Virus record (IMG/VR): IMGVR_UViG_2695420763_000013
Strand: one strand, 5' to 3'
From: a virus
Lineage: Duplodnaviria > Heunggongvirae > Uroviricota > Caudoviricetes
Length of the DNA stretch: 34,806 bases
Position numbers and translations under genes: made by a program. Below the pieces are notes generated by a model, which did not search any database, was not told the origin of the DNA, and saw only the letters and a program-made list of their open reading frames with translations. How positions within the stretch are numbered: position 1 is the first letter of the stretch; every line of letters begins with the position of its first letter. Below, one piece after another: positions 1 to 28,413 of this stretch.

Positions 1-1362
1 ATGTTTAAACCGGAACTCCTTTCCCCGGCGGGAACGCTGAAAAATATGCGTTACGCTTTCGCTTATGGCGCAGATGCTGTTTATGCGGGCCAGCCGCGTT
101 ATTCCCTGCGTGTGCGCAACAACGAATTCAACCACGAAAATCTTCAGCTCGGCATCAATGAAGCCCACGCGCTGGGGAAAAAGTTTTATGTCGTGGTCAA
201 CATTGCACCGCACAACGCCAAGCTGAAAACCTTTATCCGTGACCTGAAACCGGTGGTGGAAATGGGGCCGGATGCGCTGATTATGTCCGATCCAGGGCTG
301 ATTATGCTGGTGCGTGAGCACTTCCCTGAAATGCCGATCCACCTTTCGGTGCAGGCTAACGCCGTGAACTGGGCGACGGTGAAATTCTGGCAGCAAATGG
401 GCCTGACCCGCGTGATCCTCTCTCGCGAGCTGTCGCTGGAAGAGATTGAAGAGATCCGCAATCAGGTGCCGGATATGGAGATCGAGATCTTCGTTCACGG
501 CGCGCTGTGCATGGCCTACTCCGGTCGCTGCCTGCTCTCTGGCTATATCAACAAGCGCGACCCGAACCAGGGCACCTGCACCAACGCCTGCCGCTGGGAG
601 TACAACGTCCAGGAAGGGAAAGAAGATGATGTTGGCAACATCGTACACAAGTACGAGCCGATTCCGGTGCAAAATGTTGAGCCGACGCTGGGTATCGGCG
701 CACCAACCGACAAAGTGTTTATGATCGAAGAGGCCCAGCGTCCGGGCGAGTATATGACCGCGTTTGAAGATGAGCACGGCACTTACATCATGAACTCGAA
801 AGATCTGCGCGCCATCGCCCATGTAGAACGCCTGACCAAAATGGGCGTGCATTCGCTGAAAATCGAAGGTCGTACCAAATCTTTCTACTATTGTGCACGC
901 ACCGCACAGGTTTACCGCAAAGCTATCGATGACGCCGCTGCGGGAAAACCGTTCGATACCAGCCTGCTGGAAACTCTGGAAGGTCTGGCGCATCGTGGCT
1001 ATACCGAAGGTTTCCTGCGTCGTCATACTCACGACGATTATCAGAACTACGAATACGGTTATTCAGTTTCTGACCGCCAGCAGTTTGTTGGTGAGTTTAC
1101 CGGTGAGCGCAAGGGGGACCTCGCGGCGGTAGCGGTGAAAAATAAATTCTCCGTTGGCGACAGCCTTGAGCTGATGACGCCGCAAGGCAACATTAATTTT
1201 ACCCTTGAGCACATGGAAAACGCCAAAGGCGAAGCTATGCCGATAGCACCAGGCGATGGTTATACTGTGTGGCTCCCGGTCCCGCAGGATCTTGAGCTCA
1301 ATTACGCGCTGCTGATGCGTAATTTCTCCGGGGAAACCACGCGTAATCCCCACGGTAAGTGA
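1..1362 (+). CDS. yegQ: Peptidase U32-family protein YegQ (TrhP)
   Basis: 453-aa ORF with the U32 signature E-x-F-x-x-G-A-L-C-x-x-Y-S-G-x-C (EIFVHGALCMAYSGRCLLS); lies immediately upstream of cyaR as in E. coli. Name from memory. Confidence 0.85.
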   Translation: MFKPELLSPAGTLKNMRYAFAYGADAVYAGQPRYSLRVRNNEFNHENLQLGINEAHALGKKFYVVVNIAPHNAKLKTFIRDLKPVVEMGPDALIMSDPGLIMLVREHFPEMPIHLSVQANAVNWATVKFWQQMGLTRVILSRELSLEEIEEIRNQVPDMEIEIFVHGALCMAYSGRCLLSGYINKRDPNQGTCTNACRWEYNVQEGKEDDVGNIVHKYEPIPVQNVEPTLGIGAPTDKVFMIEEAQRPGEYMTAFEDEHGTYIMNSKDLRAIAHVERLTKMGVHSLKIEGRTKSFYYCARTAQVYRKAIDDAAAGKPFDTSLLETLEGLAHRGYTEGFLRRHTHDDYQNYEYGYSVSDRQQFVGEFTGERKGDLAAVAVKNKFSVGDSLELMTPQGNINFTLEHMENAKGEAMPIAPGDGYTVWLPVPQDLELNYALLMRNFSGETTRNPHGK

Positions 1363-1446
1363 TTAATTTCGATTATTTTTCCCGGATGGAAAATTCTTAG
1401 AAACCGATCACATACAGCTGCATTTATTAAGGTTATCATCCGTTTC

Positions 1447-1533
1447 GCTGAAAAACATAACCCATAAAATGCTAGCTGTACCAGGAACCACCTCCTTAGC
1501 CTGTGTAATCTCCCTTACACGGGCTAATTTTTT
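1447..1533 (+). ncRNA. cyaR: CyaR (RyeE) Hfq-dependent small RNA
   Basis: About 87 nt beginning GCTGAAAAACATAACCC, with the CCACCTCCTTA motif and a 3' hairpin plus T-run (CCCTTACACGGGCTAATTTTTT). Matches my memory of E. coli CyaR. A TATCAT -10-like hexamer lies at 1434..1439. The 3' end coincides with attL. Confidence 0.7.
1507..1533. other. attL: Prophage attL core (P2 att 27-mer, 26/27 identical to attR copy)
   Basis: AATCTCCCTTACACGGGCTAATTTTTT. The reverse complement matches the remembered P2 attP core AAAAAATAAGCCCGTGTAAGGGAGATT except one position. A second copy lies at 34304..34330. Confidence 0.7.
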
Positions 1534-1597
1534 ACGCGTAATACAATGAAATAAAAGGATTTATTTCTGGTCACGTCCACACATTGACCACATCGAC

Positions 1598-1624
1598 AAA
1601 AAAGCCCCTCGACTGAGGGGCTTT
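1598..1624 (-). terminator. Rho-independent terminator downstream of ogr
   Basis: GC-rich hairpin GCCCCTC-GACT-GAGGGGC flanked by an A-run on the plus strand, giving a T-run after the stem on the minus strand, about 10 nt past the ogr stop. Confidence 0.6.
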
Positions 1625-1634
1625 CCATTTGTAA

Positions 1635-1853
1635 TTACATCCACATAATTTGCTGCCCTGACGGCAACGGGTGCGGTCTTACGGCGTGGACTTCTCCCGG
1701 CTTCACGATGTATCTCTGTACCGACTCATAGGTGATGAACGTGGCGCTGCAATTCACGTTCTGGCACTGGTGATAACGCTCTTTTGTCGTGTCAGTGATA
1801 TAGCGACTTGTACGCGCATGTGCGGCATGCTGGCATAAAGGACAATGAAACAT
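1635..1853 (-). CDS. ogr: Late-gene transcriptional activator Ogr (zinc finger)
   Basis: 72-aa product from the internal ATG at 1851..1853 (MFHCPLCQHAAHARTSRY...CQNVNCSATF), with CxxC...CxxC zinc-binding pairs. Same length as P2 Ogr. The 100-aa ORF-track version is an upstream extension. Confidence 0.9.
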   Translation of the reverse strand: MFHCPLCQHAAHARTSRYITDTTKERYHQCQNVNCSATFITYESVQRYIVKPGEVHAVRPHPLPSGQQIMWM

Positions 1854-1933
1854 CGCGAGCACCTCTTCCGGTTTTGTTGATGGTGCCATTTTAGTTAATT
1901 TATCCTTATAAAACAAACAGATAAAACAAAACA

Positions 1934-3097
1934 TCACTCATCATCTTCGGTTTCGTACTCCACATCAGAAAGCCTGACCTCAAGCTCCAGGGACGTCGTG
2001 AAGCCGCTATTATTCAGAAAATGTGTCACCTTAGTGATTGTCCAGTCCTGCTCGTCTATGACGCGCTTAAAGCCTGACACTTTGACCGGCGTTTCCGTGT
2101 AAATATCTGCCCGACCAGTGGCAAGGCTGATGGAGAACTCCGCAACGCCCCGTTGCAGTTTGTCCCACTTCGCCTGAGCGGCGCGCATGGCCTGCGCTTT
2201 CGTGGCATATACCGTGGTCAGGGCAAAAACGTTGTCAGCCTCACCGGCCATGTATTCACCTTCGCGCGCTTCCGGTACTTTTGGCGCTTTCTTCTGCGTG
2301 ACCGGTTTCGCTTTCGGGTGCTCCAGTGCGCGCAGGTGTTTCTCTTTCTTTTTGCGTTTCAGTTTTACCTTCTGCTTTTGCGGCTTCGGGTCTTTGGTGT
2401 GTAACCACTTTGCCGTTACGCCGGTGTAGGCTCCACGGTCAGCAATCGCAAAATGATGACGGTCACCGTCGCTGCGGGTGAGGGTAATCTGCGGGATTTT
2501 TTTACCGCTGGCAGTCACCCCCTGCCCCGCTTTGAGAAACAGCAGTTTTCCCATTTTTACCGACACCTCACCGCCGTTGCGTTCAGCAAGACGGGTCAGG
2601 AATTTCGCATCAGACTCCTGCGACTGGTCGATGTGCGGGATTTTAATTCCGGCCAGTGACGGAGCGACACTGGCTTCCAGCCTGTTACGGGTGGCTATCG
2701 CCTCAACAATCGCACCGAGCGTGGTGTCATGCCAGGAGCCTTCCCGGCGGGAATTGAGCGTCCCGCGAAAATCTGCACTCCGGGCGCGGATGGTGACCAC
2801 ATCCGGCGCGCCCCGGTGTTCAACCTCATCAACGGTAAATTTCCCTTTGCATACCAGGGCAAAACCTTTCCAGCCGATATACACCGTCAGGACAGCGCCA
2901 CGAACCGGCAGTCCGACCTGCCCGTCGGCATCGTTCAGTTCAATATCAAGCTGGTCAGCCTCAAAGCCCCGGTTATCCGTCAGGGTCATGCTCATCAGAC
3001 GGTCGCTGATATTGCCGGTAATATCCCTGCTGTCGAGCATCAGCATGTAATCCGGTGTCAGCGTACTGCCTGCATCAAATGTCAGCGCATCCAGCAT
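1934..3097 (-). CDS. D: Tail protein D
   Basis: 387 aa, the P2 gpD length, directly upstream of ogr as in P2; lysine-rich central linker. Confidence 0.85.
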   Translation of the reverse strand: MLDALTFDAGSTLTPDYMLMLDSRDITGNISDRLMSMTLTDNRGFEADQLDIELNDADGQVGLPVRGAVLTVYIGWKGFALVCKGKFTVDEVEHRGAPDVVTIRARSADFRGTLNSRREGSWHDTTLGAIVEAIATRNRLEASVAPSLAGIKIPHIDQSQESDAKFLTRLAERNGGEVSVKMGKLLFLKAGQGVTASGKKIPQITLTRSDGDRHHFAIADRGAYTGVTAKWLHTKDPKPQKQKVKLKRKKKEKHLRALEHPKAKPVTQKKAPKVPEAREGEYMAGEADNVFALTTVYATKAQAMRAAQAKWDKLQRGVAEFSISLATGRADIYTETPVKVSGFKRVIDEQDWTITKVTHFLNNSGFTTSLELEVRLSDVEYETEDDE

Positions 3098-3576
3098 TAT
3101 CCCGCCCCCGTCATACCCGTGAATCTGGTCGCCATACTGCCGGCCTTACCGATGAGCGATTCCGTCTGTTTACCGATATCGCCATAAAGCGCGGCCAGTG
3201 ATTCATCAACGCGGGTGAGCGACAGCGTAAAATCAATTTTTCGGGGTGTGCCGTCTGCAAAGAAAATACACCCTGTTTCACTCACCTTGCTGATGACATA
3301 CATGCCGTAAATCATTCCGGTGCCATCCAGCAACGGCCACGCCCGGCCTTCCTCTGCCATCAGTCTGAGCGTGGTCATCGTCAGCTTTCCGCCGGTCAGT
3401 TCGGGATAAAGCACACCGGCAAGCGTAATGTTTTCCTCACCCACACCGAGAAACTGAAAGGCATCCCGTTTGCCGATACGGGAATTTGACGGCCAGCGAT
3501 AATCTGATTCACGCTGCATGGTCTGGTGTGGCAGCGTCTGGCGCATAAAAACAAACATACCTAACGCGAGCATCAT
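3097..3576 (-). CDS. U: Tail protein U
   Basis: 159 aa, the P2 gpU length; 1-nt overlap with D start; conserved position between T and D. Confidence 0.85.
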   Translation of the reverse strand: MMLALGMFVFMRQTLPHQTMQRESDYRWPSNSRIGKRDAFQFLGVGEENITLAGVLYPELTGGKLTMTTLRLMAEEGRAWPLLDGTGMIYGMYVISKVSETGCIFFADGTPRKIDFTLSLTRVDESLAALYGDIGKQTESLIGKAGSMATRFTGMTGAG

Positions 3577-3590
3577 TTTTCGTCACCTCC

Positions 3591-6038
3591 TTAACCGTCA
3601 TGCATCATGCTGGCACGGGCACGCGCACGTTTATCCCGCTCGTATTTTTCGAGCGCATCCTGTAACTGGCGGTCAAGCTGTGTCCCCGGCGCAGTACCAC
3701 CCGTCAGGCTGATGTGATATTCGTTTTTACTCTGGTCCACATAAGAGCGGCCAGCCGGTGCCGTGACCGGCTGATAAGCCTGATAGCCTGCATAAGAACT
3801 GGTCGCCGGAATATAACCACCGGTGCCATACGTGGCGGCATGAGTTCTGGCGGCGGTCTGGTCAAGTGTGTCTGACTCTTTGTTGATGACCCCGAGCTTT
3901 TCCAGTACCCAGTCAATACCGCTGCGCAGTTTGTTGAACGCATTAAGCGGCAGCATCAGCGCGTCAGCCAGTGCCTGCCCGAACATGACGCCCGTGTCAC
4001 GGCAACGGTTCAGGGTGTCCTGTGTGGCTTTGACCGGGGCAATCAGGTTTTTAAACCACTGCCACGCGGCCTGTAACTTTTCGCCCAGCCAGTCAAACAC
4101 CGGTTTCAGTGGCGTGAACAGCTCCCCCACCGGCGCAAATGCCGCTTTCAGCCCTTCCACCACACCGCCAAAGAATGCGCTGACAGGCTCCCAGTATTTA
4201 CGGATAAGCAACGCCCCGGCGACAATGGCGGCCACCACGGCCACAACCGGCCAGCTAATCGCCCCGATGGCCGTCATAACAGCACTGCCAACCGTCATGA
4301 AGATTGCCCCCATTGCGCCTGCTGCCGCGATAATGGCATTGATGCCGGTGATAACCGGCCATGCTACAAGACCAATGGCACCGATGATGCCAATAAGCGC
4401 CAGCGCGCCACCGACAATGAGGCCGATGGTTGACGCCAGTGATTTGTTTTTCTGGATCCAGCCGTCGAGTTTTAACACATACTTTGTGGCCGTCTGAGTG
4501 AGTTTACGCAGTGCGCCTTCCTGCTGGTCAAACAGGTCTGTCCCCACCGCCTCATAAGCGGACTGAAACTCCTTAAAGTCACCGCCGAGGTTGTCCTGCA
4601 TGATATTTACCAGCTCGGCGGTCTTCCCGTCTGAGGCTTTAAACGCAGCGGTCAGTTTGTCCAGCTTTCCGGTTGAGGCGGCAGTCATCAGCACGGCGGC
4701 GGCTGAGCTGGCCTCCTCCCCGAAAATGGTTTTCATGTATTCAGCCTGCTGGGCAGTACCGAGCCGATTTTTCTCAAAACTGGCCTGCATTTCTTTCAGA
4801 ATGGTAAATATTGGTCGGGTGTTTCCCTTGCTGTCTGAGGTTTTCACACCAAGCTCTTTCAGTGCATCCCATGCTTTTCCCGTCGGTGCCTGCAGGCGGC
4901 TTAACACGGCACGGCTTCCCGTCCCCGCCATTGAACCGGTAATTTTTGCATCATGCAGCGCCCCGACCATTGCGGCGGTTTCTTCAATGCTGACACCGGC
5001 ATTTTTTGCCACAGGTGCGGCATAGGTCAGCGCATCGCTCATGCCGTCAAAATCGGCGGCGGTTTTGTTCATCGTCATGGAGAGAACATCCCCGATATGA
5101 GCGACCTTATCGTTTGAAAGCTGAAAGGCGGATTTCATCCCCATCAACAGGGCGGCGTTTTCTTCCATCGTGCGACGGTTCGCCAGCGCCATATTCAGCG
5201 TGACCGGCGTTGCCGCCTGAATGGCATCAACATCCCCACCCGCTTTCGCGATGATTATCTGTGCACCGGCCGCATCATCCGCCGAGGCGGCGGTATTGTC
5301 GCCGAGCTGGCGCGCCTGTTTGCGTAGTGCGGTCATTTCGGCGGAGTCTTTTGCCACTCCGAGCACGGCCTGCAATTCTGAGTTTTTCTGCGCAAACTCA
5401 TAACCGGGCATCAGCAACTTAACTCCGGCCATCGTTCCCGCCGCCGCAATCCCCACACCGGCAGCGCCTACTGAGGCCATATTTCCGGCCAGTTCCTTTC
5501 CGGCCTGATAACGCTGTTTGACTGCGTTAAGTTTTGCCTGTTGCGCACTGACACGCGCCAGCGCGTCGCGCTGACGGTTAAGCTGTGCGGTGGTTTCACT
5601 GATACGGTTTTTCAGTCCCTGCTCATCATGTGCAAGATTGCGGGTATTAATTCCCACAGCGGCCAGTTCCCGCTGCTGGCGTTTAACGGAATCCGTCAGG
5701 CGGTTATATTTCGCCTGTAAGTCCTCCGCCGCTCGCTTTGCGGATTCCAGCACTTTCGCCTGAGCACGGGTCGGACGTTCGGTGTTTTTAAACTGTGTGG
5801 CAAGGGCTTCGGCTTCCTGCCGTGCCTTTTCAAGTGCATGACCAGTCACGGCGAGCTGCGCACTGGTCTTGCGAAATCCCTCAATACGGGATGCGTGACC
5901 GTTCAGCTCGCGCAGTGATTTTTGTGTTTCCCGGATATCCCCCGACAGCGACTTGCTCGCTGTGCGGATGGATTTAAACGGGCGGGATGCCTGGTCAACA
6001 GCCCTGAGCAATACCTGTAATTTTACATTGTTACTCAT
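3591..6038 (-). CDS. T: Tail tape-measure protein T
   Basis: 815 aa, the P2 gpT length. N-terminal coiled-coil-like Q/R/A-rich region and a central Gly/Ala-rich hydrophobic segment. Its start overlaps the E' stop (ATGAGTAA). Confidence 0.9.
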   Translation of the reverse strand: MSNNVKLQVLLRAVDQASRPFKSIRTASKSLSGDIRETQKSLRELNGHASRIEGFRKTSAQLAVTGHALEKARQEAEALATQFKNTERPTRAQAKVLESAKRAAEDLQAKYNRLTDSVKRQQRELAAVGINTRNLAHDEQGLKNRISETTAQLNRQRDALARVSAQQAKLNAVKQRYQAGKELAGNMASVGAAGVGIAAAGTMAGVKLLMPGYEFAQKNSELQAVLGVAKDSAEMTALRKQARQLGDNTAASADDAAGAQIIIAKAGGDVDAIQAATPVTLNMALANRRTMEENAALLMGMKSAFQLSNDKVAHIGDVLSMTMNKTAADFDGMSDALTYAAPVAKNAGVSIEETAAMVGALHDAKITGSMAGTGSRAVLSRLQAPTGKAWDALKELGVKTSDSKGNTRPIFTILKEMQASFEKNRLGTAQQAEYMKTIFGEEASSAAAVLMTAASTGKLDKLTAAFKASDGKTAELVNIMQDNLGGDFKEFQSAYEAVGTDLFDQQEGALRKLTQTATKYVLKLDGWIQKNKSLASTIGLIVGGALALIGIIGAIGLVAWPVITGINAIIAAAGAMGAIFMTVGSAVMTAIGAISWPVVAVVAAIVAGALLIRKYWEPVSAFFGGVVEGLKAAFAPVGELFTPLKPVFDWLGEKLQAAWQWFKNLIAPVKATQDTLNRCRDTGVMFGQALADALMLPLNAFNKLRSGIDWVLEKLGVINKESDTLDQTAARTHAATYGTGGYIPATSSYAGYQAYQPVTAPAGRSYVDQSKNEYHISLTGGTAPGTQLDRQLQDALEKYERDKRARARASMMHDG

Positions 6039-6458
6039 TCGTGTTTCCGCTTCGCCGGAGCGCCTTTTCGCGCCATGTGATGAGTTCGGTCAGGCTCATG
6101 GGATACAGTTCTGATGGCGGCCAGTGAAATATCACTGCCACATCCGCCATCAGGTCATCGACCGAGAGATTTTTCGGAAACGTCACTGCACCGAGTTCGG
6201 CGACAAAAAACCGACCACCTTACCGGCCAGCGCCACAAGGTCAGGCAGTTCCAGCGCGGCGACTTCCTGCTCGGTCAGCATCGGTGCCGTCATGCGCGGC
6301 AGCACTTTAATCAGTGCATCGACTTCGGAGTTCGCGACTGCAGCCAGACTGACACCGCGCAGCGTCCCGGCATTGGGTTTCATCAGCGTGACCTGTTCGA
6401 TAACCTGCTCACCACGTTTGACCGGATTGTCCAGGGTAATGACGTTTTCTTTGTTCAT
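6031..6458 (-). CDS. E': Tail assembly chaperone E+E' (programmed -1 ribosomal frameshift product)
   Basis: Slippery heptamer T-TTT-TTG (minus strand, plus-strand 6204..6210) lies 7 codons before the E stop. The -1 frame continues open for 57 codons to a TAA at 6031..6033 that overlaps the T start. Predicted product is 142 aa, the P2 E+E' length. Confidence 0.75.
6183..6458 (-). CDS. E: Tail assembly chaperone E
   Basis: 91 aa, the P2 gpE length; located between T and FII. Confidence 0.85.
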   Translation of the reverse strand: MNKENVITLDNPVKRGEQVIEQVTLMKPNAGTLRGVSLAAVANSEVDALIKVLPRMTAPMLTEQEVAALELPDLVALAGKVVGFLSPNSVQ

Positions 6459-6514
6459 GGTTTTCTCACTTCTGAATCGGGGTTAACCGGTCAGCCAGGC
6501 TGACCGGATGAAAA

Positions 6515-7033
6515 TCACAGGCCGATATTGCGGCGGTGTTGCTCCAGCCGGTCGACGCCGTTCACCTTCTCAATCATGTTGATGGTGTCGATTTCGACCA
6601 GCTCCTTACCGTCCATCGTCAGCCGGAAATAGGTGCAGACCACGGAGATTTTCGACTCGGTGTCTTCTCCCTGTTTGCCCTCGCCGGTGTCGATTTCTTT
6701 CTGACGGCCACGCATGACCACCTCGACGGCCACCGTTTCGCCGGTATCGTCGCGCTGGTAAGAGCCGGCAAAACGAATCGGTACGGCATCCACACCGGTT
6801 GCGGCGTAAAGCTCCCAGATAACCGAATCCGGGAAGCCACCGAGCGACCACTCCATTGACAGCGCATCGTCATCAAGGCCGAGGTCTACCGGTGCGCTGC
6901 CGTTCATCCCCGCACCGCGATAGTTTTCGAGCTTACGGGTCAGTTTTGGCAGCGTGACGGACTTCGCGACGCCCTGATAGCTGTAGCCGTTCAGAAAGAC
7001 GTTCATTAACTTGAGTTTGCGCGGCATTGCCAT
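6515..7033 (-). CDS. FII: Tail tube protein FII
   Basis: 172 aa, the P2 gpFII length; immediately downstream of FI. Confidence 0.9.
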   Translation of the reverse strand: MAMPRKLKLMNVFLNGYSYQGVAKSVTLPKLTRKLENYRGAGMNGSAPVDLGLDDDALSMEWSLGGFPDSVIWELYAATGVDAVPIRFAGSYQRDDTGETVAVEVVMRGRQKEIDTGEGKQGEDTESKISVVCTYFRLTMDGKELVEIDTINMIEKVNGVDRLEQHRRNIGL

Positions 7034-7045
7034 CGGTCAGGCTCC

Positions 7046-8236
7046 TTAATTGCTGTTAACCGAGGTGACCAGATTTGCCAGGTATTTATCGGTAATACGC
7101 TGGCGCAGGGTCAGGTTTTCAAGAGGAGGCACCGGTGTATAGTCGTAGTCGATATACAGTTTTCCGGCCTTGAGGGTTTCCGCATCGTTGGATTCTTCGC
7201 TGAACCAGCAGGTCGCATCCACGATATAGCCGTTTGTTTTCAGCTCACGGAATTTGGCATTGATGCCGTCAACGATGTCGCGAATCAGCGTTGCGGTGAT
7301 GGGCTTGTCCACCGCCCACATGTGCGCCTCAGCCATCGTGTCGGCCAGCACCTGCGCGGTGCGGGTGTAGTTTTCAAAGAGGAACAGCGGGTCATCAGAG
7401 CAGGTACGGTTACCCCAGAAGCGGAAACCGTCGCGGCGAATCAGCGTAGTGACGCCTGACTCATTAAGCAAGTCAGCATCGGTGCCGGACTCCTGCAAAT
7501 CCCAGAATACAGAGGCGCTGATGCCGGTAACACCGTTCACCCCGACATTGGACAGCGTTTTATGCCAGCCCTGCTCCTGGTCGATTTTGGCACGCAGCCC
7601 CAGTGCACGGGCGGTGGCATACGCGGTGGCGGTGGTACTGGTGACCGTATCCCATGCGAGGAAATCCGGCCAGATGACCATCAGCTCACGCTGGCTGAAA
7701 TTCTGACGGTAGGCTTTCACCTCGGAAATGGTTTTACAGCCCCATGCGCTGATATACCCGAAAGCGCGCAGCTTCTGACAGACTGATGCCAGTGCAACAG
7801 CCACCTCTTTGGTGTCCAGTCCCGGCACGCCGAGAATACGCGGTTTAACACCGGTTACCGACTCTGCCGCCAGCAGGGCTTTCAGTCCGGTATACTGACC
7901 GTTTTCGTCGGTGGTGCCGATGATATTGGAAACGGTCTGCGCGAGTTTCGTTTCTTCGTCTTCGCCGGTGCCGTCTTCAACACGCACGACAACGGTGACC
8001 GGTTTTGACTGGTCAGCGATGGCCTGTAACGACGCCGCCAGCGTGCCTTTTTTACCGGCCTTTGCAATTGCGCTCTGCACATTGGTAATCAGCACCGGTT
8101 TATTGAGGGGGAAGATTTCCGCATCCGCATCGCTGGCCGTGCAGACCATGCCGACAATGGCAGTGGATACGGTGGAAATGACGCGGGTGCCGTCGTTAAT
8201 CTCCAGCACCTGCACGCCGTGATGATAGTCACTCAT
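7046..8236 (-). CDS. FI: Contractile tail sheath protein FI
   Basis: 396 aa, the P2 gpFI length; conserved synteny. Confidence 0.9.
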   Translation of the reverse strand: MSDYHHGVQVLEINDGTRVISTVSTAIVGMVCTASDADAEIFPLNKPVLITNVQSAIAKAGKKGTLAASLQAIADQSKPVTVVVRVEDGTGEDEETKLAQTVSNIIGTTDENGQYTGLKALLAAESVTGVKPRILGVPGLDTKEVAVALASVCQKLRAFGYISAWGCKTISEVKAYRQNFSQRELMVIWPDFLAWDTVTSTTATAYATARALGLRAKIDQEQGWHKTLSNVGVNGVTGISASVFWDLQESGTDADLLNESGVTTLIRRDGFRFWGNRTCSDDPLFLFENYTRTAQVLADTMAEAHMWAVDKPITATLIRDIVDGINAKFRELKTNGYIVDATCWFSEESNDAETLKAGKLYIDYDYTPVPPLENLTLRQRITDKYLANLVTSVNSN

Positions 8237-8295
8237 CCGTTTAACTCCGTGGTTAATGGGTGAGTGATATTTTCAGTTGTGCCGGAGATGTCAGG

Positions 8296-8889
8296 CTATT
8301 TGTCCCGGTTGGCTAAGGGATGACACAATTTATTCTTTGTCGCTGATGAGGGAAATTTTTTATAGAGCGTGGACAGGCCAATATCAAAAATCAGCGCCAC
8401 ACGTTGACGAGATTCCCCCGCAGCCAGCAACCGTCCGACCTGCTCCCACTCACTCGCGGTGAGTTTCGGACGTCTGCCACCAATACGACCTTTGGCTCTG
8501 GCCGCTTCCAGTCCGGCGCGTGTCCGCTCGACAATGAGTTCTCGTTCCATTTCAGCCAGGGCACCCATCACATGGAAGAAAAAACGCCCCATCGGCGTGC
8601 TGGTATCAATAGCATCCGTCAGGCTGCGAAAATTAATGCCGCGTTCGCGCAGTTCCTCGACCAGAATGACCAGATGCCGCATACTACGCCCCAGCCTGTC
8701 CAGCTTCCAGACAACCAGAGTGTCACCTTCCGATAATGTTCTGAGCAGTTTTTTCAGCCCCGGTCGGTCGGACTTCGTGCCGCTGATTTTATCCTCAAAA
8801 ATCAGCTCACATCCTGCGCACTCCAGCGCGTTACGCTGCAATTCCGTATTCTGGTCATTTGTTGATACGCGGACATAGCCAATAAGCAT
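8296..8889 (-). CDS. Serine recombinase, DNA invertase (Hin/Gin/Pin/Cin family)
   Basis: N-terminus MLIGYVRVSTNDQ carries the catalytic serine motif; resolvase-type catalytic domain and a C-terminal helix-turn-helix (LSTLYKKF); adjacent to the tail-fibre crossover sites. Confidence 0.9.
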   Translation of the reverse strand: MLIGYVRVSTNDQNTELQRNALECAGCELIFEDKISGTKSDRPGLKKLLRTLSEGDTLVVWKLDRLGRSMRHLVILVEELRERGINFRSLTDAIDTSTPMGRFFFHVMGALAEMERELIVERTRAGLEAARAKGRIGGRRPKLTASEWEQVGRLLAAGESRQRVALIFDIGLSTLYKKFPSSATKNKLCHPLANRDK

Positions 8890-8956
8890 GATGGATCCCC
8901 TGAATAAAAACCGGGGATGATGCCAGTTAGCCGTAATCTCTGCATTTTCTTAAACG

Positions 8957-8971
8957 TTGGTTTGGGAGAAG
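8957..8971 (+). other. Putative invertase crossover-site core, copy 1 (TTGGTTTGGGAGAAG)
   Basis: Identical 15-mer at 10579..10593 (same orientation) and 12416..12430 (inverted); in each copy it encodes G-L-G-E at the junction between constant and variable tail-fibre parts. Confidence 0.55.
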
Positions 8972-9318
8972 CGGCGAAAAGGGATGTGGGTACAGGAGAA
9001 AATCAGATACCGGATATGTCAGCCTGGAAAAGAAATCCGAGTTCTAATCGCTGGAGAAAATTGCCTGATGGAACCATCATTCAAATGGGAATATCAGCAT
9101 CAGGGCCATTAGGCTCACCTGTAAATATCACCCTGCCGATATCTTTCAGCAATACCAATTATTGTGTTGTTGCATCGTACGATAATGCACGGTCAGGTGT
9201 GTCAACAATGGTTAGTTTTGCAGCATTACCTGTTTCACCATCGCAATTTTCCCTGATGTCATCTGTGACTGAGCAAGGAATAAATCCTTTTGCTTACTGG
9301 ATTGCTTTTGGAGATTGA
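8959..9318 (+). CDS. Promoterless tail-fibre C-terminal cassette (exact copy of the H C-terminus)
   Basis: Translation from the crossover core (GLGEAAKRDVGTGENQ...AFGD) is identical to the last ~120 aa of H (12069..12430, minus strand). The upstream part of the ORF-track ORF 8917..9318 is out-of-cassette read-through. Confidence 0.5.
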   Translation, partial: GLGEAAKRDVGTGENQIPDMSAWKRNPSSNRWRKLPDGTIIQMGISASGPLGSPVNITLPISFSNTNYCVVASYDNARSGVSTMVSFAALPVSPSQFSLMSSVTEQGINPFAYWIAFGD

Positions 9319-9321
9319 TAA

Positions 9322-9741
9322 ATGGACAGATACTTCTATTCACAAAAAGAAAATGGTTTTTTTACCGATTTAAATAAAGCACCTTCAGATGCTGTTGAGA
9401 TAACCACGGATGAATGGCTATCACTACTGGATGGTCAGGATAATGGCATGAAAATAGTCAGCAATCAGGAGGGATATCCGGTTTTGACAGAGCAACCACC
9501 TTTATCAAAAGAAAACCTTATTGCATTGGTAGAGTTGAAAAAAGGAAAACTTATTAATGAAGCCAACGAGCACATGAACAGCAGGCAATGGCCTGGTAAA
9601 GCGGCTATTGGTCGTCTGAAAGGTGAGGAACTGGCGCAATATAATTTGTGGCTGGATTATCTGGACGCACTGGAGCTGGTCGATACTTCCAGTGCGCCAG
9701 ATATTGAATGGCCTACGCCTCCGGCAGTTCAGGCCAGATGA
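9322..9741 (+). CDS. Tail fibre assembly chaperone (Tfa family), copy of 11646..12065
   Basis: 139 aa with a Tfa-type C-terminus (WLDYLDALELVDTSSAPDIEWPTPP); identical to the chaperone immediately downstream of H. Confidence 0.7.
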   Translation: MDRYFYSQKENGFFTDLNKAPSDAVEITTDEWLSLLDGQDNGMKIVSNQEGYPVLTEQPPLSKENLIALVELKKGKLINEANEHMNSRQWPGKAAIGRLKGEELAQYNLWLDYLDALELVDTSSAPDIEWPTPPAVQAR

Positions 9742-10315
9742 TATCCGGCGCGGTGCTGGTATCTGTTACCGTCACCGCGTCAATGTAATCCAGCACGGCG
9801 TTAAGTCGGGTTGTTTCTGCCTGCGTCAACTTCCGTCCGGCCTGCAATTTCAGTTGAATCAGACTAATGGAAGCCATTGCAGTATCAATCAGTGACTGAC
9901 GTTGTGCTTCTGCCGCGTCTACTGCGGCGCTATGCTGTGCCTCGGTATCCGTCACCCATTTCTCACCATCCCATTTATCGTATGGCGTTAACGGGGCGAT
10001 AGTGGTTGTATTATCAGGGTAATCACCCGGAACTGTGATTTCTTTTGATTCTCCTGTTTCGGTGCTAAAGACGATTTCACCGCGATGGTCTGGCACATAT
10101 TCCCATGAGTTAAAATCTGCAGATCGGCAGATTGCATAACCAGCTTTGTATGCGCCTGGGGCATCTAAACAGGAATATGCCGGAATGCCGACACCAATAG
10201 CAAGATATTCAGTTGAAGCTGAAATATATTCCCGACTCATGACATCAAAGTTATAAACAGTAATTTCTCCTGCCATAGTGGCAATTAATTCACTGTTTAA
10301 TTCTGCGTTATTCAT
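9713..10315 (-). CDS. Tail fibre assembly chaperone (Tfa family), copy of 11072..11674
   Basis: 200 aa with a Tfa-type C-terminus (LDYIDAVTVTDTSTAPDIIWPELP); identical to the plus-strand copy. Confidence 0.7.
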   Translation of the reverse strand: MNNAELNSELIATMAGEITVYNFDVMSREYISASTEYLAIGVGIPAYSCLDAPGAYKAGYAICRSADFNSWEYVPDHRGEIVFSTETGESKEITVPGDYPDNTTTIAPLTPYDKWDGEKWVTDTEAQHSAAVDAAEAQRQSLIDTAMASISLIQLKLQAGRKLTQAETTRLNAVLDYIDAVTVTDTSTAPDIIWPELPEA

Positions 10316-10576
10316 TATGCAGCCCTCACAATATAGTTAAAAGCGACATTTCGTGGGCGTGTTTCATTCGCACCAGCAGGTTTAGTCGTTGCCGCAACAA
10401 CACCACCCTCTGTAATAGCCGGGTTGGGAATTGGGTAATTATCGAAGTCAATGGCCGGAGACAGGGGCGTGATTTGTTTTAAAATCGTGGTGCCTGTAAA
10501 ACTTTCCAGAGTCTGGTCGTTAGTTCGTGAAGTCCAGATTCCCCAATAGTGGTTATGACTGACAATCGCACCGTCC
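10315..10576 (-). pseudogene. Truncated copy of tail-fibre cassette B C-terminus (lacks N-terminal part and crossover site)
   Basis: Exact reverse complement of 10811..11072; the repeat identity ends at 10576, so this copy has no in-frame crossover core or start. Confidence 0.5.
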
Positions 10577-10578
10577 TA

Positions 10579-10593
10579 TTGGTTTGGGAGAAG
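10579..10593 (+). other. Putative invertase crossover-site core, copy 2
   Basis: TTGGTTTGGGAGAAG at the start of cassette B, 2 bp after the end of the left repeat arm. Confidence 0.55.
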
Positions 10594-11072
10594 GCTCTGC
10601 ATTACCTGTTGGTGTCCCTGTTCCGTGGCCTTCAGCCACTCCGCCGACAGGCTGGATGAAATGCAACGGTGCGGCTTTTTCTGCTGAAGAATACCCGGAA
10701 CTGGCAAAGGCTTACCCGACAAATAAATTGCCTGATTTACGCGGTGAGTTTATTCGTGGCTGGGATGACGGACGTGGAGTGGATAACGGAAGGGGATTAT
10801 TAACGCTTCAGGACGGTGCGATTGTCAGTCATAACCACTATTGGGGAATCTGGACTTCACGAACTAACGACCAGACTCTGGAAAGTTTTACAGGCACCAC
10901 GATTTTAAAACAAATCACGCCCCTGTCTCCGGCCATTGACTTCGATAATTACCCAATTCCCAACCCGGCTATTACAGAGGGTGGTGTTGTTGCGGCAACG
11001 ACTAAACCTGCTGGTGCGAATGAAACACGCCCACGAAATGTCGCTTTTAACTATATTGTGAGGGCTGCATAA
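10581..11072 (+). CDS. Alternative tail-fibre C-terminal cassette B (receptor-binding tip), promoterless in this orientation
   Basis: Begins in frame inside the crossover core (GLGEGSALPVGVPVPWP...). The pattern GW-KCNGA, LPDLRGEFIRGWDDGRG and C-terminal RP-NVAFNYI is typical of Mu S/P1 S-type variable tail-fibre tips. The ORF-track start at 10584 is a TTG. Confidence 0.6.
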   Translation, partial: GLGEGSALPVGVPVPWPSATPPTGWMKCNGAAFSAEEYPELAKAYPTNKLPDLRGEFIRGWDDGRGVDNGRGLLTLQDGAIVSHNHYWGIWTSRTNDQTLESFTGTTILKQITPLSPAIDFDNYPIPNPAITEGGVVAATTKPAGANETRPRNVAFNYIVRAA

Positions 11073-11674
11073 TGAATAACGCAGAATTAAACAGTGAATT
11101 AATTGCCACTATGGCAGGAGAAATTACTGTTTATAACTTTGATGTCATGAGTCGGGAATATATTTCAGCTTCAACTGAATATCTTGCTATTGGTGTCGGC
11201 ATTCCGGCATATTCCTGTTTAGATGCCCCAGGCGCATACAAAGCTGGTTATGCAATCTGCCGATCTGCAGATTTTAACTCATGGGAATATGTGCCAGACC
11301 ATCGCGGTGAAATCGTCTTTAGCACCGAAACAGGAGAATCAAAAGAAATCACAGTTCCGGGTGATTACCCTGATAATACAACCACTATCGCCCCGTTAAC
11401 GCCATACGATAAATGGGATGGTGAGAAATGGGTGACGGATACCGAGGCACAGCATAGCGCCGCAGTAGACGCGGCAGAAGCACAACGTCAGTCACTGATT
11501 GATACTGCAATGGCTTCCATTAGTCTGATTCAACTGAAATTGCAGGCCGGACGGAAGTTGACGCAGGCAGAAACAACCCGACTTAACGCCGTGCTGGATT
11601 ACATTGACGCGGTGACGGTAACAGATACCAGCACCGCGCCGGATATCATCTGGCCTGAACTGCCGGAGGCGTAG
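11072..11674 (+). CDS. Tail fibre assembly chaperone for cassette B (Tfa family)
   Basis: 200 aa; ATG overlaps the cassette B stop; Tfa-type C-terminus. Confidence 0.75.
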   Translation: MNNAELNSELIATMAGEITVYNFDVMSREYISASTEYLAIGVGIPAYSCLDAPGAYKAGYAICRSADFNSWEYVPDHRGEIVFSTETGESKEITVPGDYPDNTTTIAPLTPYDKWDGEKWVTDTEAQHSAAVDAAEAQRQSLIDTAMASISLIQLKLQAGRKLTQAETTRLNAVLDYIDAVTVTDTSTAPDIIWPELPEA

Positions 11675-12065
11675 GCCATTCAATATCTGGCGCACTGGAA
11701 GTATCGACCAGCTCCAGTGCGTCCAGATAATCCAGCCACAAATTATATTGCGCCAGTTCCTCACCTTTCAGACGACCAATAGCCGCTTTACCAGGCCATT
11801 GCCTGCTGTTCATGTGCTCGTTGGCTTCATTAATAAGTTTTCCTTTTTTCAACTCTACCAATGCAATAAGGTTTTCTTTTGATAAAGGTGGTTGCTCTGT
11901 CAAAACCGGATATCCCTCCTGATTGCTGACTATTTTCATGCCATTATCCTGACCATCCAGTAGTGATAGCCATTCATCCGTGGTTATCTCAACAGCATCT
12001 GAAGGTGCTTTATTTAAATCGGTAAAAAAACCATTTTCTTTTTGTGAATAGAAGTATCTGTCCAT
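11646..12065 (-). CDS. Tail fibre assembly chaperone for the current H variant (P2 G-like)
   Basis: 139 aa directly downstream of H on the same strand; Tfa-type C-terminus. Confidence 0.75.
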   Translation of the reverse strand: MDRYFYSQKENGFFTDLNKAPSDAVEITTDEWLSLLDGQDNGMKIVSNQEGYPVLTEQPPLSKENLIALVELKKGKLINEANEHMNSRQWPGKAAIGRLKGEELAQYNLWLDYLDALELVDTSSAPDIEWPTPPAVQAR

Positions 12066-12068
12066 TTA

Positions 12069-13256
12069 TCAATCTCCAAAAGCAATCCAGTAAGCAAAAG
12101 GATTTATTCCTTGCTCAGTCACAGATGACATCAGGGAAAATTGCGATGGTGAAACAGGTAATGCTGCAAAACTAACCATTGTTGACACACCTGACCGTGC
12201 ATTATCGTACGATGCAACAACACAATAATTGGTATTGCTGAAAGATATCGGCAGGGTGATATTTACAGGTGAGCCTAATGGCCCTGATGCTGATATTCCC
12301 ATTTGAATGATGGTTCCATCAGGCAATTTTCTCCAGCGATTAGAACTCGGATTTCTTTTCCAGGCTGACATATCCGGTATCTGATTTTCTCCTGTACCCA
12401 CATCCCTTTTCGCCGCTTCTCCCAAACCAAGGTATGCGAGAAGACCAGCTACATCCTTTCCACTCAAATGAGTCAGCGTCTCATCCAGTGGCTGCTTACC
12501 TGACAGCGCATTGTTAATGGTGGCGCTGAATTTCGGGTCATTGTTAATGGCTGCGGCAATTTCTTTCAGTGTGTCCAGCGTGGCTGGCGCGCCGTTAATC
12601 AGAGCGGTAATAGCAGCCTGTACAAACGCAGTGGTCGCAATCCGCGTGGTGTTATTTCCTGCATCAGGCGTCGGCGCTTTTGGTTCTCCGGTAAATGTCG
12701 GATTATGTTTCTGTGCATACTGGGTATGAGGATCCTGTGCGGCAATGTGGTTTCTCATCTGGTCATCCACATACAGCCTTAATTCCAGGACTTCATCATC
12801 CACGTATTTACGGGTCGCCAGTACCACCGACGGGTCGATTTTCAGCGTGATGGCTTCGGTATTCGTGACAACCAGAATCATGCGGATAGTCTGGGTACGA
12901 CCACTGCCTTCCTGTAACTGCGGTTTGTACGTTTCCGGGCAGTTCGCCACCGCAATGAGTACGCCTTCATCATCATAAAGCCCAATCTCACGGATCCAGA
13001 ATCCGCCCTCGTTCTCAGGGATGATTTGCTCCGCAATAATCTGGCTCTGGTTATTCGGGTCAACACTCAGAAGATTCAGCGGCGCGATGCGTTTCTGGTT
13101 AATAAGTTTTGTCTGTGCCGGGTCTGGTGTCGGCAAGACACCATTTGCATCACCAACGGCCATTTGCGTCAGATTCAGCTTACTGCCGAGCATCGTCGCG
13201 TTAGCCAGCCGTGCCGCGCCCTGATTAGTCAGAATGGCGTAGTATTTCACTGTCAT
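12069..13256 (-). CDS. H: Tail fibre protein H (constant N-terminal part fused to variable cassette A)
   Basis: 395 aa. The N-terminus resembles P2 gpH (MAVGD...GGFW.RE.GLYDD.G.LIAVAN....YKP...EGSGR). The C-terminal ~120 aa begins at the inverted crossover core 12416..12430. Confidence 0.85.
   Translation of the reverse strand: MTVKYYAILTNQGAARLANATMLGSKLNLTQMAVGDANGVLPTPDPAQTKLINQKRIAPLNLLSVDPNNQSQIIAEQIIPENEGGFWIREIGLYDDEGVLIAVANCPETYKPQLQEGSGRTQTIRMILVVTNTEAITLKIDPSVVLATRKYVDDEVLELRLYVDDQMRNHIAAQDPHTQYAQKHNPTFTGEPKAPTPDAGNNTTRIATTAFVQAAITALINGAPATLDTLKEIAAAINNDPKFSATINNALSGKQPLDETLTHLSGKDVAGLLAYLGLGEAAKRDVGTGENQIPDMSAWKRNPSSNRWRKLPDGTIIQMGISASGPLGSPVNITLPISFSNTNYCVVASYDNARSGVSTMVSFAALPVSPSQFSLMSSVTEQGINPFAYWIAFGD
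12416..12430 (-). other. Putative invertase crossover-site core, copy 3 (inverted, inside H)
   Basis: Reverse complement of TTGGTTTGGGAGAAG; encodes G-L-G-E in H. Confidence 0.55.
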
Positions 13257-13864
13257 GCGTTTACTCTCAGGTTATCAATTAAATGAATGGCCGAGGCCGG
13301 GAAATAATCCCCTCCGACAATAATGGCCTCCGGGGTGTAGGGATAAACCGTCAGGGCGTCGCCGTGATAGCATCCCGCACCGGCAAAAATGTTGCCGGTT
13401 GTACTTAAACTGATAGCCAGTCCCGTCAGATGGCGGCTTGCAGGTTTTGCATCAGCAACGAGACGCTCCAGCTCCTGATACATTTCCTCGGTAATACCCT
13501 GCTCAAGCACGCCAACAACGATGCGGAACGTCCCCGGCTCCTCGTTGAGCTGCCACCACTCCCTCACCTCAATCAGATAGCCGAGCGGCTCCACCACACG
13601 GCGAATCGCACCAATAGTGCCCTTATGGCAGTGAATGAAATACGCATCGCGGATAACAGCGCGTTTTGTCGCTTCCGGCCACTTATCATCCCAGCGGTCA
13701 ACCGAAAATGACCACGCCAGCCACGGCAGCAGATTTGCCGGGCAGGTGTCCGGGTTCCACAGCTCACGAATACTGACCGGCGTTTTTTCAATTTCCGCAC
13801 AGGCTTTTGCGGCGGCAACTTCAAGCGGTGATGAGCCGGTCGGCAGCAGGCGCGAATCACTCAT
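13253..13864 (-). CDS. I: Baseplate protein I
   Basis: 203 aa between J and H; overlaps both neighbours by a few nt. Confidence 0.75.
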   Translation of the reverse strand: MSDSRLLPTGSSPLEVAAAKACAEIEKTPVSIRELWNPDTCPANLLPWLAWSFSVDRWDDKWPEATKRAVIRDAYFIHCHKGTIGAIRRVVEPLGYLIEVREWWQLNEEPGTFRIVVGVLEQGITEEMYQELERLVADAKPASRHLTGLAISLSTTGNIFAGAGCYHGDALTVYPYTPEAIIVGGDYFPASAIHLIDNLRVNA

Positions 13865-25340: not shown

Positions 25341-27173
25341 TTAACAACGTAATTCTGTACAATTAGCCCATTCTTCAGAAAAAACAGCATCTGAAGATTT
25401 TGGCCCTGGCCTTGCTTGATTAATTGAAATTCTTACAGGCAAATTAAATGCAGAACCAAATGCAACAGCATCACCTCTTGGTAAACCTGATATTTGTTTT
25501 AAGATTTGTTCATTACCGCTTTCCATTGCATATCTGAGAGCCTGTAAATCTCTTTCATTAGTCAAACGTAACGAAAACCAGTTTGAACACATTGCCAAAA
25601 CAGTAGGAGAAAGCTCTGAGGGTCGCTGAGTACTGACAATTAAAGAGCATTTGAATTTCCTACCTTCTTTAGCAAGTCGTTCATATGCTTTAATCTGTGA
25701 GTCAATTTCAGCATAAGGGTCACGCAGGTAATGATGCGCTTCTTCCAACAAAAGTACCGTAGGATACGAACGTTCCTGCCCACGTCTAAATAGTATCTCA
25801 GCAAACATCTCCAACAATGCACTAAGTAACATTGGAGCATGATCTTGTGCCAAATTTTTCATATTAACTATATGAACATTCCAATCATTTTCTTGTCCTT
25901 TTTCCTTACCAAAGAAGTAATCAACTTCATCACTCATAGCTTTATCCCAATGCGTTCCACCATCTGCTAGCTCACCCCCTCCATTTAAATTAACAATAGA
26001 TTTAAATCTTATATCCTCTGCAAGTTGTTGTATGATTTTTACCAATGGCAACACGTTACTAAAACCAAACGCGTCACGTTTACTTCCATTAGAACGGTCA
26101 GCAGCTACACATCCAAATTCAGCAACCAAAGTCGCTAAACTTTTAAACGGTGGCCATACATTCGTTCTTTTAAGACGTCTACGCCTTAATAAATCCAACC
26201 ACTCAGCCAATTTACTTTGATTTGTGTCACGACAATCATCATACAAAAGAAAAGTTTCACCATCATCTTTTTCCAAGTAAATATTACGGCTTTTAAAATG
26301 AGTCCGATTAATTGCACTTAATGCATTTCTTAATGCGGGCAATTGTGTTTTATCACTTGGTCTTAATAATTTAATTAACCCAGCAAAACCTAATGCCTGA
26401 TATGGTATCTTTTTATAACAATAATACTCTTCACTATATAGCTCACCCTTTTGCTGCTTTTTTTCCAAACTATCAACATTTGGGGATTCCCCTAGAATAG
26501 TGTGCTTTACATTTGGAATACCTGTAAAAGCTTGCGCGTATTCACCATTTATGTCAAAAATAACTATTCTTGAGTTAGGGTATTTTTCAGAAACCTTCCT
26601 CGTTAACAAAGCATTGAAATTTGATTTACCATATCCTGTACTACCAAGAACGGCTAAGTGTCGCGACAATAATTTATCAACACTTGCAAATATCTTAACG
26701 GTTTTAGTTCGAGAATCCACACCTAATTCAACCGCTTTTGGGAGTTCTTCTTTATCAATACTATAAATGATGTTCAAAAAATCTGAAGTCAAAGGAACAG
26801 CAGAAGAACCCAATGCAGGTAAGCGCCAATCTTCTGATATAAAAACATAACCATTTAACTCCCTTTTCACAAAGCCAATTGCATAGGCGATAATTTGTCT
26901 TAGAGGTATATCAGCTAAATCAGATGTGCCTACATTTGCCTTATGCGCTTTATCCGCTTCAACAAATGCCATATCTGTCACTCTTGCGACAACTAATATA
27001 TTACCTGCATCGAACCCAATAAGATCTCCTGGTTGCGTTACTGAGCTCACCCCCTTTCTATGCGATGCTAATCTGCCTTGCAACCCCTCATGCAGGTTTA
27101 TCCTAATTCTTTCCCCTTCTAATCCTACAACGTATCCAATAGCCGAGATTTCAGTAAGTTTAAAAAGGGACAT
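25341..27173 (-). CDS. HerA-like ATPase/helicase (defence cargo, gene 2 of 2)
   Basis: 610-aa product from the ATG at 27171..27173, preceded by AAAGGAG 6 nt upstream. Walker A GSTGYGKS (about residue 183), Walker B-like VLLLEEAHHY, and an IVSTQRPSEL motif typical of HerA/FtsK-type ATPases. AT-rich. The ORF-track start at 27224 is a TTG. Confidence 0.85.
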   Translation of the reverse strand: MSLFKLTEISAIGYVVGLEGERIRINLHEGLQGRLASHRKGVSSVTQPGDLIGFDAGNILVVARVTDMAFVEADKAHKANVGTSDLADIPLRQIIAYAIGFVKRELNGYVFISEDWRLPALGSSAVPLTSDFLNIIYSIDKEELPKAVELGVDSRTKTVKIFASVDKLLSRHLAVLGSTGYGKSNFNALLTRKVSEKYPNSRIVIFDINGEYAQAFTGIPNVKHTILGESPNVDSLEKKQQKGELYSEEYYCYKKIPYQALGFAGLIKLLRPSDKTQLPALRNALSAINRTHFKSRNIYLEKDDGETFLLYDDCRDTNQSKLAEWLDLLRRRRLKRTNVWPPFKSLATLVAEFGCVAADRSNGSKRDAFGFSNVLPLVKIIQQLAEDIRFKSIVNLNGGGELADGGTHWDKAMSDEVDYFFGKEKGQENDWNVHIVNMKNLAQDHAPMLLSALLEMFAEILFRRGQERSYPTVLLLEEAHHYLRDPYAEIDSQIKAYERLAKEGRKFKCSLIVSTQRPSELSPTVLAMCSNWFSLRLTNERDLQALRYAMESGNEQILKQISGLPRGDAVAFGSAFNLPVRISINQARPGPKSSDAVFSEEWANCTELRC

Positions 27174-28413
27174 TACCTTCTCCTTTAGAAAGATTAGCAA
27201 TTGCTTCAACCAACTCATCAACAATATTATCTCGTGGAAAGAGCACAGGGTATGGTAGATGTTCTACGAAACTATTAAAATATGCCTTGCTTCCTCCCCC
27301 AACTACAGTTACTTGATTGAAAGCCATATTTTTTAAAGTAACAATAGCTTTCTCAGCTTCCGAACCGCCACCCTTACTTACTTTGGTAATTGCTTCTTTC
27401 AATTCAGGATAATATATAACAACATGGAAAGATGGATTCAGTAACGCGCCTAATATTATTCTATTTATATGATAATCACCGAAACCAAACCCATTTATGA
27501 ACAACGCTGTTTGAGGTTTCGAAATAAACTCCCCAAAACGTCTAAACATCTCTCCATAAACGAAGCCGATTGTATGGCTATATTTATTCGCCCCTGGATA
27601 AATCAAATGTTGACCGCGATAAAAGTCATCTTTATTGATTATGTCATTAATATATTCATCATATGCTTGAGATGCACTAACTTCGTTAACAGTCAAGCTA
27701 TCATTTTGATACCACGTAAGTGAGCCATGTAATTTATAGAGATACGCATGATAATGTCCGAATCTTGCTTCGCCCTTCGCATTTACATTTCTGAAAGCCA
27801 AATCAAAATTCTGGGGATAAAACTGCCGTGTATGTAGCCCAGAAAAACCATTAAACAACTGTATTCCTAAATCTTCTGCAGCCCACTCTAAGGCCAAATC
27901 ATAATTTGTTGTAAAAATTGCCGGAGCCGACTGACCGGGCTGTCTATTTGAAATTAATTTTGAAATTAACTCTTTGTGATATTTAAACGCATCTTTTTTA
28001 CCCTGATTTTTCTCTCTAAACTGTTCTCCTGTTAATAATGCAGCCTTCGTAACCTCTTTATATAATGAACTTAATATCTTCCTGAATTCCTCCTCTTCAT
28101 CTTCACATCGTCTAGTTTTAGCTACAGAAAGAAATTTAGTTGCTTCATCTATCAAAAGTTCAACATTGACCAAATTGTTATCAGAATCAATTTGCGAAAC
28201 CAGAAGATATTTATCAATAAGTGCTCCCAAAAGCTCAGGGTAGTTTTGCTTAAACGATTTCCATACATCTTTCATCGTTTTCCCACCACAACCGACAGAA
28301 GCACCAGCACCTAACAGAACGCCAACATTATCTAATTGACACAAGGAATAAACGTGAGAACGAAAATCATCCTCATTTAACTTGTTACCACCTTGATAAA
28401 TCGACATAAACAT
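27160..28413 (-). CDS. SIR2-like (sirtuin-fold) NAD-binding protein (defence cargo, gene 1 of 2)
   Basis: 417 aa. Glycine-rich GAGAS(V)GCGG near the N-terminus, TTNYD motif (Asn about 170) and KLHGS motif (His about 229), as in prokaryotic defence SIR2 domains. A second ATG at 28405..28407 has better SD spacing, so the true start may be 2 codons in. Confidence 0.85.
   Translation of the reverse strand: MFMSIYQGGNKLNEDDFRSHVYSLCQLDNVGVLLGAGASVGCGGKTMKDVWKSFKQNYPELLGALIDKYLLVSQIDSDNNLVNVELLIDEATKFLSVAKTRRCEDEEEEFRKILSSLYKEVTKAALLTGEQFREKNQGKKDAFKYHKELISKLISNRQPGQSAPAIFTTNYDLALEWAAEDLGIQLFNGFSGLHTRQFYPQNFDLAFRNVNAKGEARFGHYHAYLYKLHGSLTWYQNDSLTVNEVSASQAYDEYINDIINKDDFYRGQHLIYPGANKYSHTIGFVYGEMFRRFGEFISKPQTALFINGFGFGDYHINRIILGALLNPSFHVVIYYPELKEAITKVSKGGGSEAEKAIVTLKNMAFNQVTVVGGGSKAYFNSFVEHLPYPVLFPRDNIVDELVEAIANLSKGEGNVPF

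Follow-up and report, generated by a model that had tools for sequence, protein, structure and literature searches.

Tail-fibre host-range switches of the Gin/Pin type are well known. In phages Mu and P1, which encode the invertases Gin and Cin, respectively, a constant fibre part, two opposed cassettes (Sv-U and U'-Sv'), and the invertase gene lie together, and the crossover sites are 26 bp long with a 2-bp centre; the locus described below has the same layout and the same type of site. Serine invertases of the Gin/Hin group cleave at this central dinucleotide. Multi-site inversion regions also occur naturally, an example being the Min region of p15B, and in p15B Min as well as in the R64 shufflon several complete sites separate different cassettes. 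The P segment of the e14 element carries the inverted repeat TTGGTTTGGGAGAAGG, which matches the crossover core found here, and it was shown experimentally that PinE, PinQ, and PinR all invert this segment (PMC12529663).

Here we analyse a switch of this kind in a stretch of 34,806 nt from a tailed phage (IMG/VR record IMGVR_UViG_2695420763_000013), designated the window in the following, which is colinear with the chromosome of E. coli LR9-2 (NZ_CM188245.1) from trhP (yegQ) to yegR at 99.7-99.9% identity. In the window, most of the invertible segment is present twice and in opposite orientations. With a probability of roughly 0.92, we regard this perfect 1.62-kb inverted duplication as an assembly artefact that arose when contigs from a culture containing both inversion states were joined.

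The prophage and its fibre switch

The window consists of a P2-like prophage and short host flanks and is located between trhP and yegR of E. coli. The switch is found downstream of gene H and upstream of the sheath gene, and its components are listed in Table 1. For a protein identical to the invertase, Pfam reports the domains PF00239 (Resolvase) and PF02796 (HTH_7), and a phmmer search against PDB aligned residues 1-182 with Gin of phage Mu (3uj3, E=4e-94). The N-terminus MLIGYVRVSTNDQ has a serine at position 9; the protein thus combines an N-terminal catalytic domain having its serine near residue 9-10 with a C-terminal helix-turn-helix domain. The two genuine crossover sites, siteL on the invertase side and siteR on the H side, are inverted relative to each other, share the TT centre, and have identical inner halves; siteL is unchanged in the relatives L001 and L002. 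Between them lie two opposed fibre C-termini, each with its own chaperone gene (Sv with U, Sv' with U'), and the Pfam domains of the products are Gp53-like_C for Sv, Collar for Sv', and Caudo_TAP for U'. A scan of the invertase gene with a degenerate Fis motif gave AT-rich candidates at nt 82-108 and 131-145 and no clear pair with 48-bp spacing in this region. The underlying locus is an ordinary host-range switch of the Gin/Cin/Pin type and as such already known.

Two gene pairs outside the switch were observed as well. An anti-phage defence pair composed of SIR2 (417 aa; PADLOC PDLC02186, E=4e-190) and a HerA-type ATPase (627-aa ORF; PDLC02185, E=2e-277) is encoded on the minus strand at 25341-28413, flanked by the portal and replication genes, in the position of a P2 accessory hotspot. 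A ParE/ParD toxin-antitoxin pair adjoins trhP (L007 16141-16735, beyond the window) in the source strain and in SRR21970536, which is described below, and is not found in LR9-2.

Table 1 Features of the switch region, with positions in the window
Feature	Position	Strand	Basis or remark
DNA invertase gene, 197 aa, serine recombinase of the Gin/Cin/Pin/Hin group	8296..8889	-	real feature
siteL, genuine invertase-proximal 26-bp crossover site, TTTTCTTAAACG TT GGTTTGGGAGAA	8945..8970	+	sequence context
Left arm, invertible segment in flipped orientation	8957..10577	+	colinearity with LR9-2; mirror of right arm
Left arm: Sv tip	8917/8957-9318	+	
Left arm: chaperone U	9322-9741	+	
Left arm: chaperone U'	9713-10315	-	
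Left arm: 3' part of Sv'	10316-10577	-	
Contig join	10578..10578		A in the window, N in CYCV01000001.1
Invertible segment, unflipped, 1852 bp including both cores	10579..12430	+	matches LR9-2 in reverse orientation
Unflipped segment: core	10579-10593	+	
Unflipped segment: Sv' collar-type tip	10584-11072	+	
Unflipped segment: chaperone U' (200 aa)	11072-11674	+	
Unflipped segment: chaperone U (139 aa)	11646-12065	-	
Unflipped segment: Sv tip fused to H	12069-12415	-	
siteR, genuine H-proximal 26-bp crossover site, TTCTCGCATACC TT GGTTTGGGAGAA on the minus strand	12417..12442	-	sequence context
Constant N-terminal part of tail-fibre gene H, about 275 codons	12431..13256	-	PF12571 (Phage_tail_fib)
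Whole H ORF, 395 aa	12069-13256	-	ORF list

The inverted duplication

The original prediction, according to which 8957-10576 and 10811-12430 are exact reverse complements of each other and the overlapping ORFs have identical translations, was reproduced: the two stretches agree over 1620 nt with 0 mismatches, and the duplicated ORFs of 139, 200, 90, 58, and 51 aa have the same translation in both arms. Its description of the genes in the left arm is correct as well. An exact inverted repeat of about 1.6 kb cannot have arisen by chance. In a repeat search, the arms extended over 8945-10577 and 10810-12442; the 12 nt gained at their outer ends are the partly similar outer half-sites. The centre between the arms comprises 234 nt and is non-palindromic. 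A fold-back or palindromic chimeric read was considered as a source of the repeat and ruled out, as the centre is not a palindrome and the left end joins its correct flank.

The 15-nt core TTGGTTTGGGAGAAG is present in three copies, which start at 8957 (+), 10579 (+), and 12416 (-) and of which the one at 10579-10593 is termed core 2. The original prediction had the left arm stop 2 nt before core 2, and this agrees with our reading. Of these two nucleotides, the T at 10577 still continues the arm, i.e., the flipped isomer, and the second, 10578, is an N in the public record. The prediction also had the left copy start at a third crossover core. A core on the plus strand is indeed present at 8957, but the term is misleading, since the site to which it belongs (site 1, 8945-8970) is the ordinary invertase-proximal site. 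It is core 2 that lacks an outer half-site: the 12 nt in the corresponding position, CGCACCGTCCTA, with the position of the N among them, belong to the interior of Sv' and do not resemble TTTTCTTAAACG or TTCTCGCATACC. With only the inner half-site at core 2, the number of complete crossover sites in the window does not reach three. Judged by its sequence context, core 2 appears to be the inner half of siteL as it occurs in the unflipped isomer, severed from its flank. Core 2 and site 1 would then be the same physical site in the two isomers, and therefore the real locus would have two sites rather than three.

The source record and the junction

The window was compared with CYCV01000001.1, a 724-kb contig of the draft assembly GCA_001286025.1. 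Over the 22.4 kb compared (window positions 1-20256 and 6.4 kb of host flank), both sequences are the same base for base with the sole exception of position 10578, which is also the only N in these 22.4 kb. The junction reads ...CGCACCGTCCT-x-TTGGTTTGGGAGAAGGCTCTGC, x being 10578. The natural continuations at this position are G in the flipped isomer, G in the invertase-side half-site, and C in the H-side half-site. As none of them is an A, the A of the window looks like a placeholder introduced when the window was prepared. This substitution hid the one clue to the join, and windows of this kind should keep or flag Ns; silently replaced Ns are possible in other windows, too.

On the left of the N, the natural sequence of the flipped isomer extends up to 10577, and on the right, the sequence of the unflipped isomer begins with the first base of the core. 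The N thus marks the only novel junction, and the isomer sequence is unaltered on either side of it, so that no sequence supports a novel junction. Two natural sequences abut at the N, and the junction possesses no sequence specific to it. The first base of the 15-nt core, with which the right-hand piece begins, is the point where siteL and siteR diverge leftwards; an assembly graph built from reads of both isomers would consequently branch there.

Orientation of the segment in related prophages

Near-identical prophages carry the segment in either orientation in nature, with the endpoints of the inversion at the cores. The LR9-2 prophage is in the flipped state and encodes a 439-aa H protein with the collar tip, and the prophages of RM8385 and CP148523 are unflipped and encode a 395-aa H protein with the gp53-like tip. 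Against LR9-2, the window is colinear from 1 to 10577 in the flipped state; 10579-12433 corresponds to the same segment in the opposite orientation, with 99.8% identity between the two cores; and from 12416 to 34806 colinearity is resumed. The gene order in the unflipped copy is that of RM8385 and CP148523. Since both orientations occur in near-identical prophages and since the e14 repeat is inverted by PinE, PinQ, and PinR, cultures with a mixture of both states are to be expected.

The comparison with related prophages that the original prediction had suggested shows a single segment with two cores and no duplication in the relatives examined. In five of them (L001-L004 and L006), two inverted cores are 1837 bp apart from start to start, exactly as siteL and siteR are here, and two further ones (L009 and L011) have two inverted cores enclosing slightly larger segments. 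The exact 395-aa H protein is encoded on four contigs, three of which have the normal single segment, the fourth being CYCV01000001.1 with the duplicated architecture. Six distinct architectures were shown for the 14 contigs with the identical tape-measure protein, and among these, three cores are present in the source record only.

The arrangement was also searched for in larger collections. Among 5,426 complete E. coli genomes, not one matches 80% or more of 8200-13300 or spans the junction; the best matches among them extend over 3479 bp in their own records, which is 5101 minus 1622. With a 161-nt query centred on the junction, matches stop at the junction in all 1,400 cassette-bearing genomes of this set. 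A junction 40-mer was not found in the genome and viral contig collections, nor a junction 27-mer in the metagenome contig collection. The ORF across the junction, translated with Q, E, K, or X at its ambiguous codon, had no exact match in a set of 15 billion proteins, a result of little weight since such a match requires an identical gene call. The gene-position index contains the truncated Sv' gene call of 162 aa just once, on the source record, and CYCV01000001.1 is the only public record with the duplicated arrangement; independent genomes did not reproduce it.

The locus is prone to misassembly, and other short-read assemblies break down at it, too. The Logan short-read contig SRR21970536_31 (L012 1-31) of a related strain, which has the same ParDE flank and the identical tape-measure protein as the source strain, ends exactly one 31-mer across siteL, this 31-mer combining a single nucleotide of flank with the 15-nt core and 15 nt of Sv. 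Such an end is typical of a graph branch at the site and indicates that both inversion states are present in that read set. In JAEDAP010000008.1 (GCA_046589655.1), two cores stand back to back (TTGGTTTGGGAGAAG directly followed by CTTCTCCCAAACCAA; L010 7056-7085) and form a perfect palindrome of 30 bp, and the entire invertible segment is missing together with the fibre tip. This arrangement is probably another misassembly at the same switch.

The collar-type cassette itself is composite. Around 2,000 E. coli genomes, K-12 among them, share its first 200-240 nt or so (10579-10822) at 90-96% identity. This homology ends at about 10772-10822, and the full collar cassette is found in only 181 genomes. 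A mosaic boundary is thus apparent inside the fibre tip, near the position where the left contig stops.

Origin of the duplicated arrangement

In the window, the invertase gene is followed by siteL, the flipped segment without its last 217 nt, a single base, a core, the unflipped segment, siteR, and H. According to the explanation that we prefer, the chromosome would carry a single invertible tail-fibre segment of 1.85 kb between two inverted 26-bp sites next to the Gin/Pin-type invertase, and its inversion would exchange the C-terminal tip of H (gp53-like or collar-type) along with the chaperone gene that follows H. Flipping is expected from the resident invertase and might also be brought about by Pin enzymes, if the host has any, so that the sequenced culture presumably held both orientations. 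Coming from the invertase side, one contig would then have crossed siteL, been extended into the segment with reads of the flipped isomer, and ended at 10577; another would have run from the crossover core at 10579 through the unflipped segment into H, with conflicting reads preventing its extension beyond the core. In a scaffolding or gap-closing step, the two would have been linked by a single N, shown as A at 10578. In this manner, the same DNA would have been written twice in opposite orientations, and the resulting perfect inverted repeat of 1.62 kb would have no counterpart in the cell. The stop of the left contig, 217 nt before the end of the segment, coincides with the entry into the widely shared collar module.

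Assemblers based on de Bruijn graphs normally do not output one unique segment twice, which is a point against this explanation, and a read-extension or gap-closing step must therefore be assumed. An unresolved join is marked by a single N in the output of SSPACE and GapFiller. What the paper on GapFiller describes is a majority-vote rule for extension, together with the remark that IMAGE over-extends the edges of scaffolds; a statement on a residual single N was not found in it, and no paper with the assembly method of GCA_001286025.1 was found in the literature. The early stop of the left contig speaks against an artefact as well, and so do two further points: an N may denote an ambiguous base call instead of a gap, and the right-hand breakpoint is at the central TT dinucleotide, the cutting point of serine invertases, as a real invertase-initiated rearrangement would predict.

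Of the two alternatives put forward in the original prediction, the joining of both inversion isomers by an assembler is borne out by the N at the sole novel junction with intact isomer sequence on either side, and the same N and the absence of the arrangement from other assemblies argue against a real, recent duplication. Such a duplication could be the product of an unequal exchange in which two sister chromosomes or phage genomes, one flipped and the other unflipped, took part: siteL of the unflipped molecule, cleaved by the invertase, would have been joined to an internal point of Sv' in the flipped one, and the N would be a poor base call. One novel junction would suffice to build the structure from the two isomers, and the lack of any divergence between the arms, like the position of the right-hand breakpoint, fits a recent event of this sort. 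It would have created a three-core switch with perfect inverted arms of 1.62 kb in which fibre H is locked onto one tip. We nevertheless consider it very unlikely. The junction base is an N in the record, and hence no read-derived junction exists; the left partner, CGCACCGTCCTG AA GCGTTAATAATC, hardly resembles a crossover site; no other assembly among thousands shows the arrangement; and H would no longer be able to gain the Sv' tip via a complete site. In E. coli, a long perfect inverted repeat is unstable if its spacer is short, and this would apply to a 1.6-kb repeat with a 234-bp spacer; to our knowledge, E. coli is also devoid of end-joining. A quasi-crossover site at the left breakpoint was sought as support for an invertase-mediated event, and the resemblance proved negligible.

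The N, which can represent a gap of any length, might also conceal a larger unsequenced region, the true locus being a more complex array of many cassettes, similar to p15B Min, with additional sites and cassettes between the two copies. Multi-site inversion regions do occur in nature, but here the two copies are identical instead of being different cassettes, a single segment with two cores is found in the relatives that occupy the same chromosomal site and are 99.7-99.9% identical, and the 5,426 complete E. coli genomes contain no such array with these cassettes, so that we hold a concealed array to be extremely improbable. To a similar degree, we doubt that two co-resident near-identical prophages, or cassettes shared with e14-like elements, were fixed in opposite orientations and became fused in the assembly, which would still be an artefact. 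Many E. coli genomes have several places that match the region (median 2, up to 14), and the first 200-240 nt of Sv' are widespread among the elements of some 2,000 genomes; paralogous cassettes in other genomes, however, typically share 90-96% identity, and the arms are identical over 1620 nt.

If the duplication is an assembly artefact, as we assume, nothing new follows for the biology of these switches, and its value is cautionary. Where segments flip in culture, draft assemblies can write both orientations or lose the segment, as in JAEDAP010000008.1, and false large inverted repeats may result. In scans of draft genomes for invertons or palindromes, gaps at the boundaries of repeats need to be checked.

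Comparison with known inversion systems

The switch resembles the P segment of e14 and its invertase Pin in E. coli K-12 in several respects. The 15-nt core is identical in both (PMC12529663), the sizes are similar (1797 bp for the P segment and 1.8 kb here), both segments contain two opposed cassettes for tail-fibre C-termini next to a serine invertase gene, and the first 200 nt or so of the collar-type cassette are 95-96% identical to K-12. Because the core is identical to the e14 repeat, invertases of cryptic prophages in the host could flip this fibre segment in trans. In contrast to the cryptic e14, the switch described here is part of an apparently intact P2-like prophage, and its gp53-like cassette and chaperones differ from those of e14. 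With the G segment of Mu, it shares an invertase of the Gin family (the E=4e-94 match over 182 residues), but its length of 1.85 kb is below the 3 kb of Mu G and the 4.2 kb of P1 C (PMC12529663), and its fibre tips differ from those of Mu and P1. Among P2-like elements, Escherichia phage pro483 and the O157 and O103 prophages have the same gene order and a single-segment architecture with 96-97% identity, and none of them has the inverted duplication. By its number of cores, the window superficially looks like p15B Min or the R64 shufflon, which possess more than two crossover cores per region; unlike in these systems, however, the surplus core is missing its outer half-site, the additional cassettes repeat the others exactly, and an N stands at the join.
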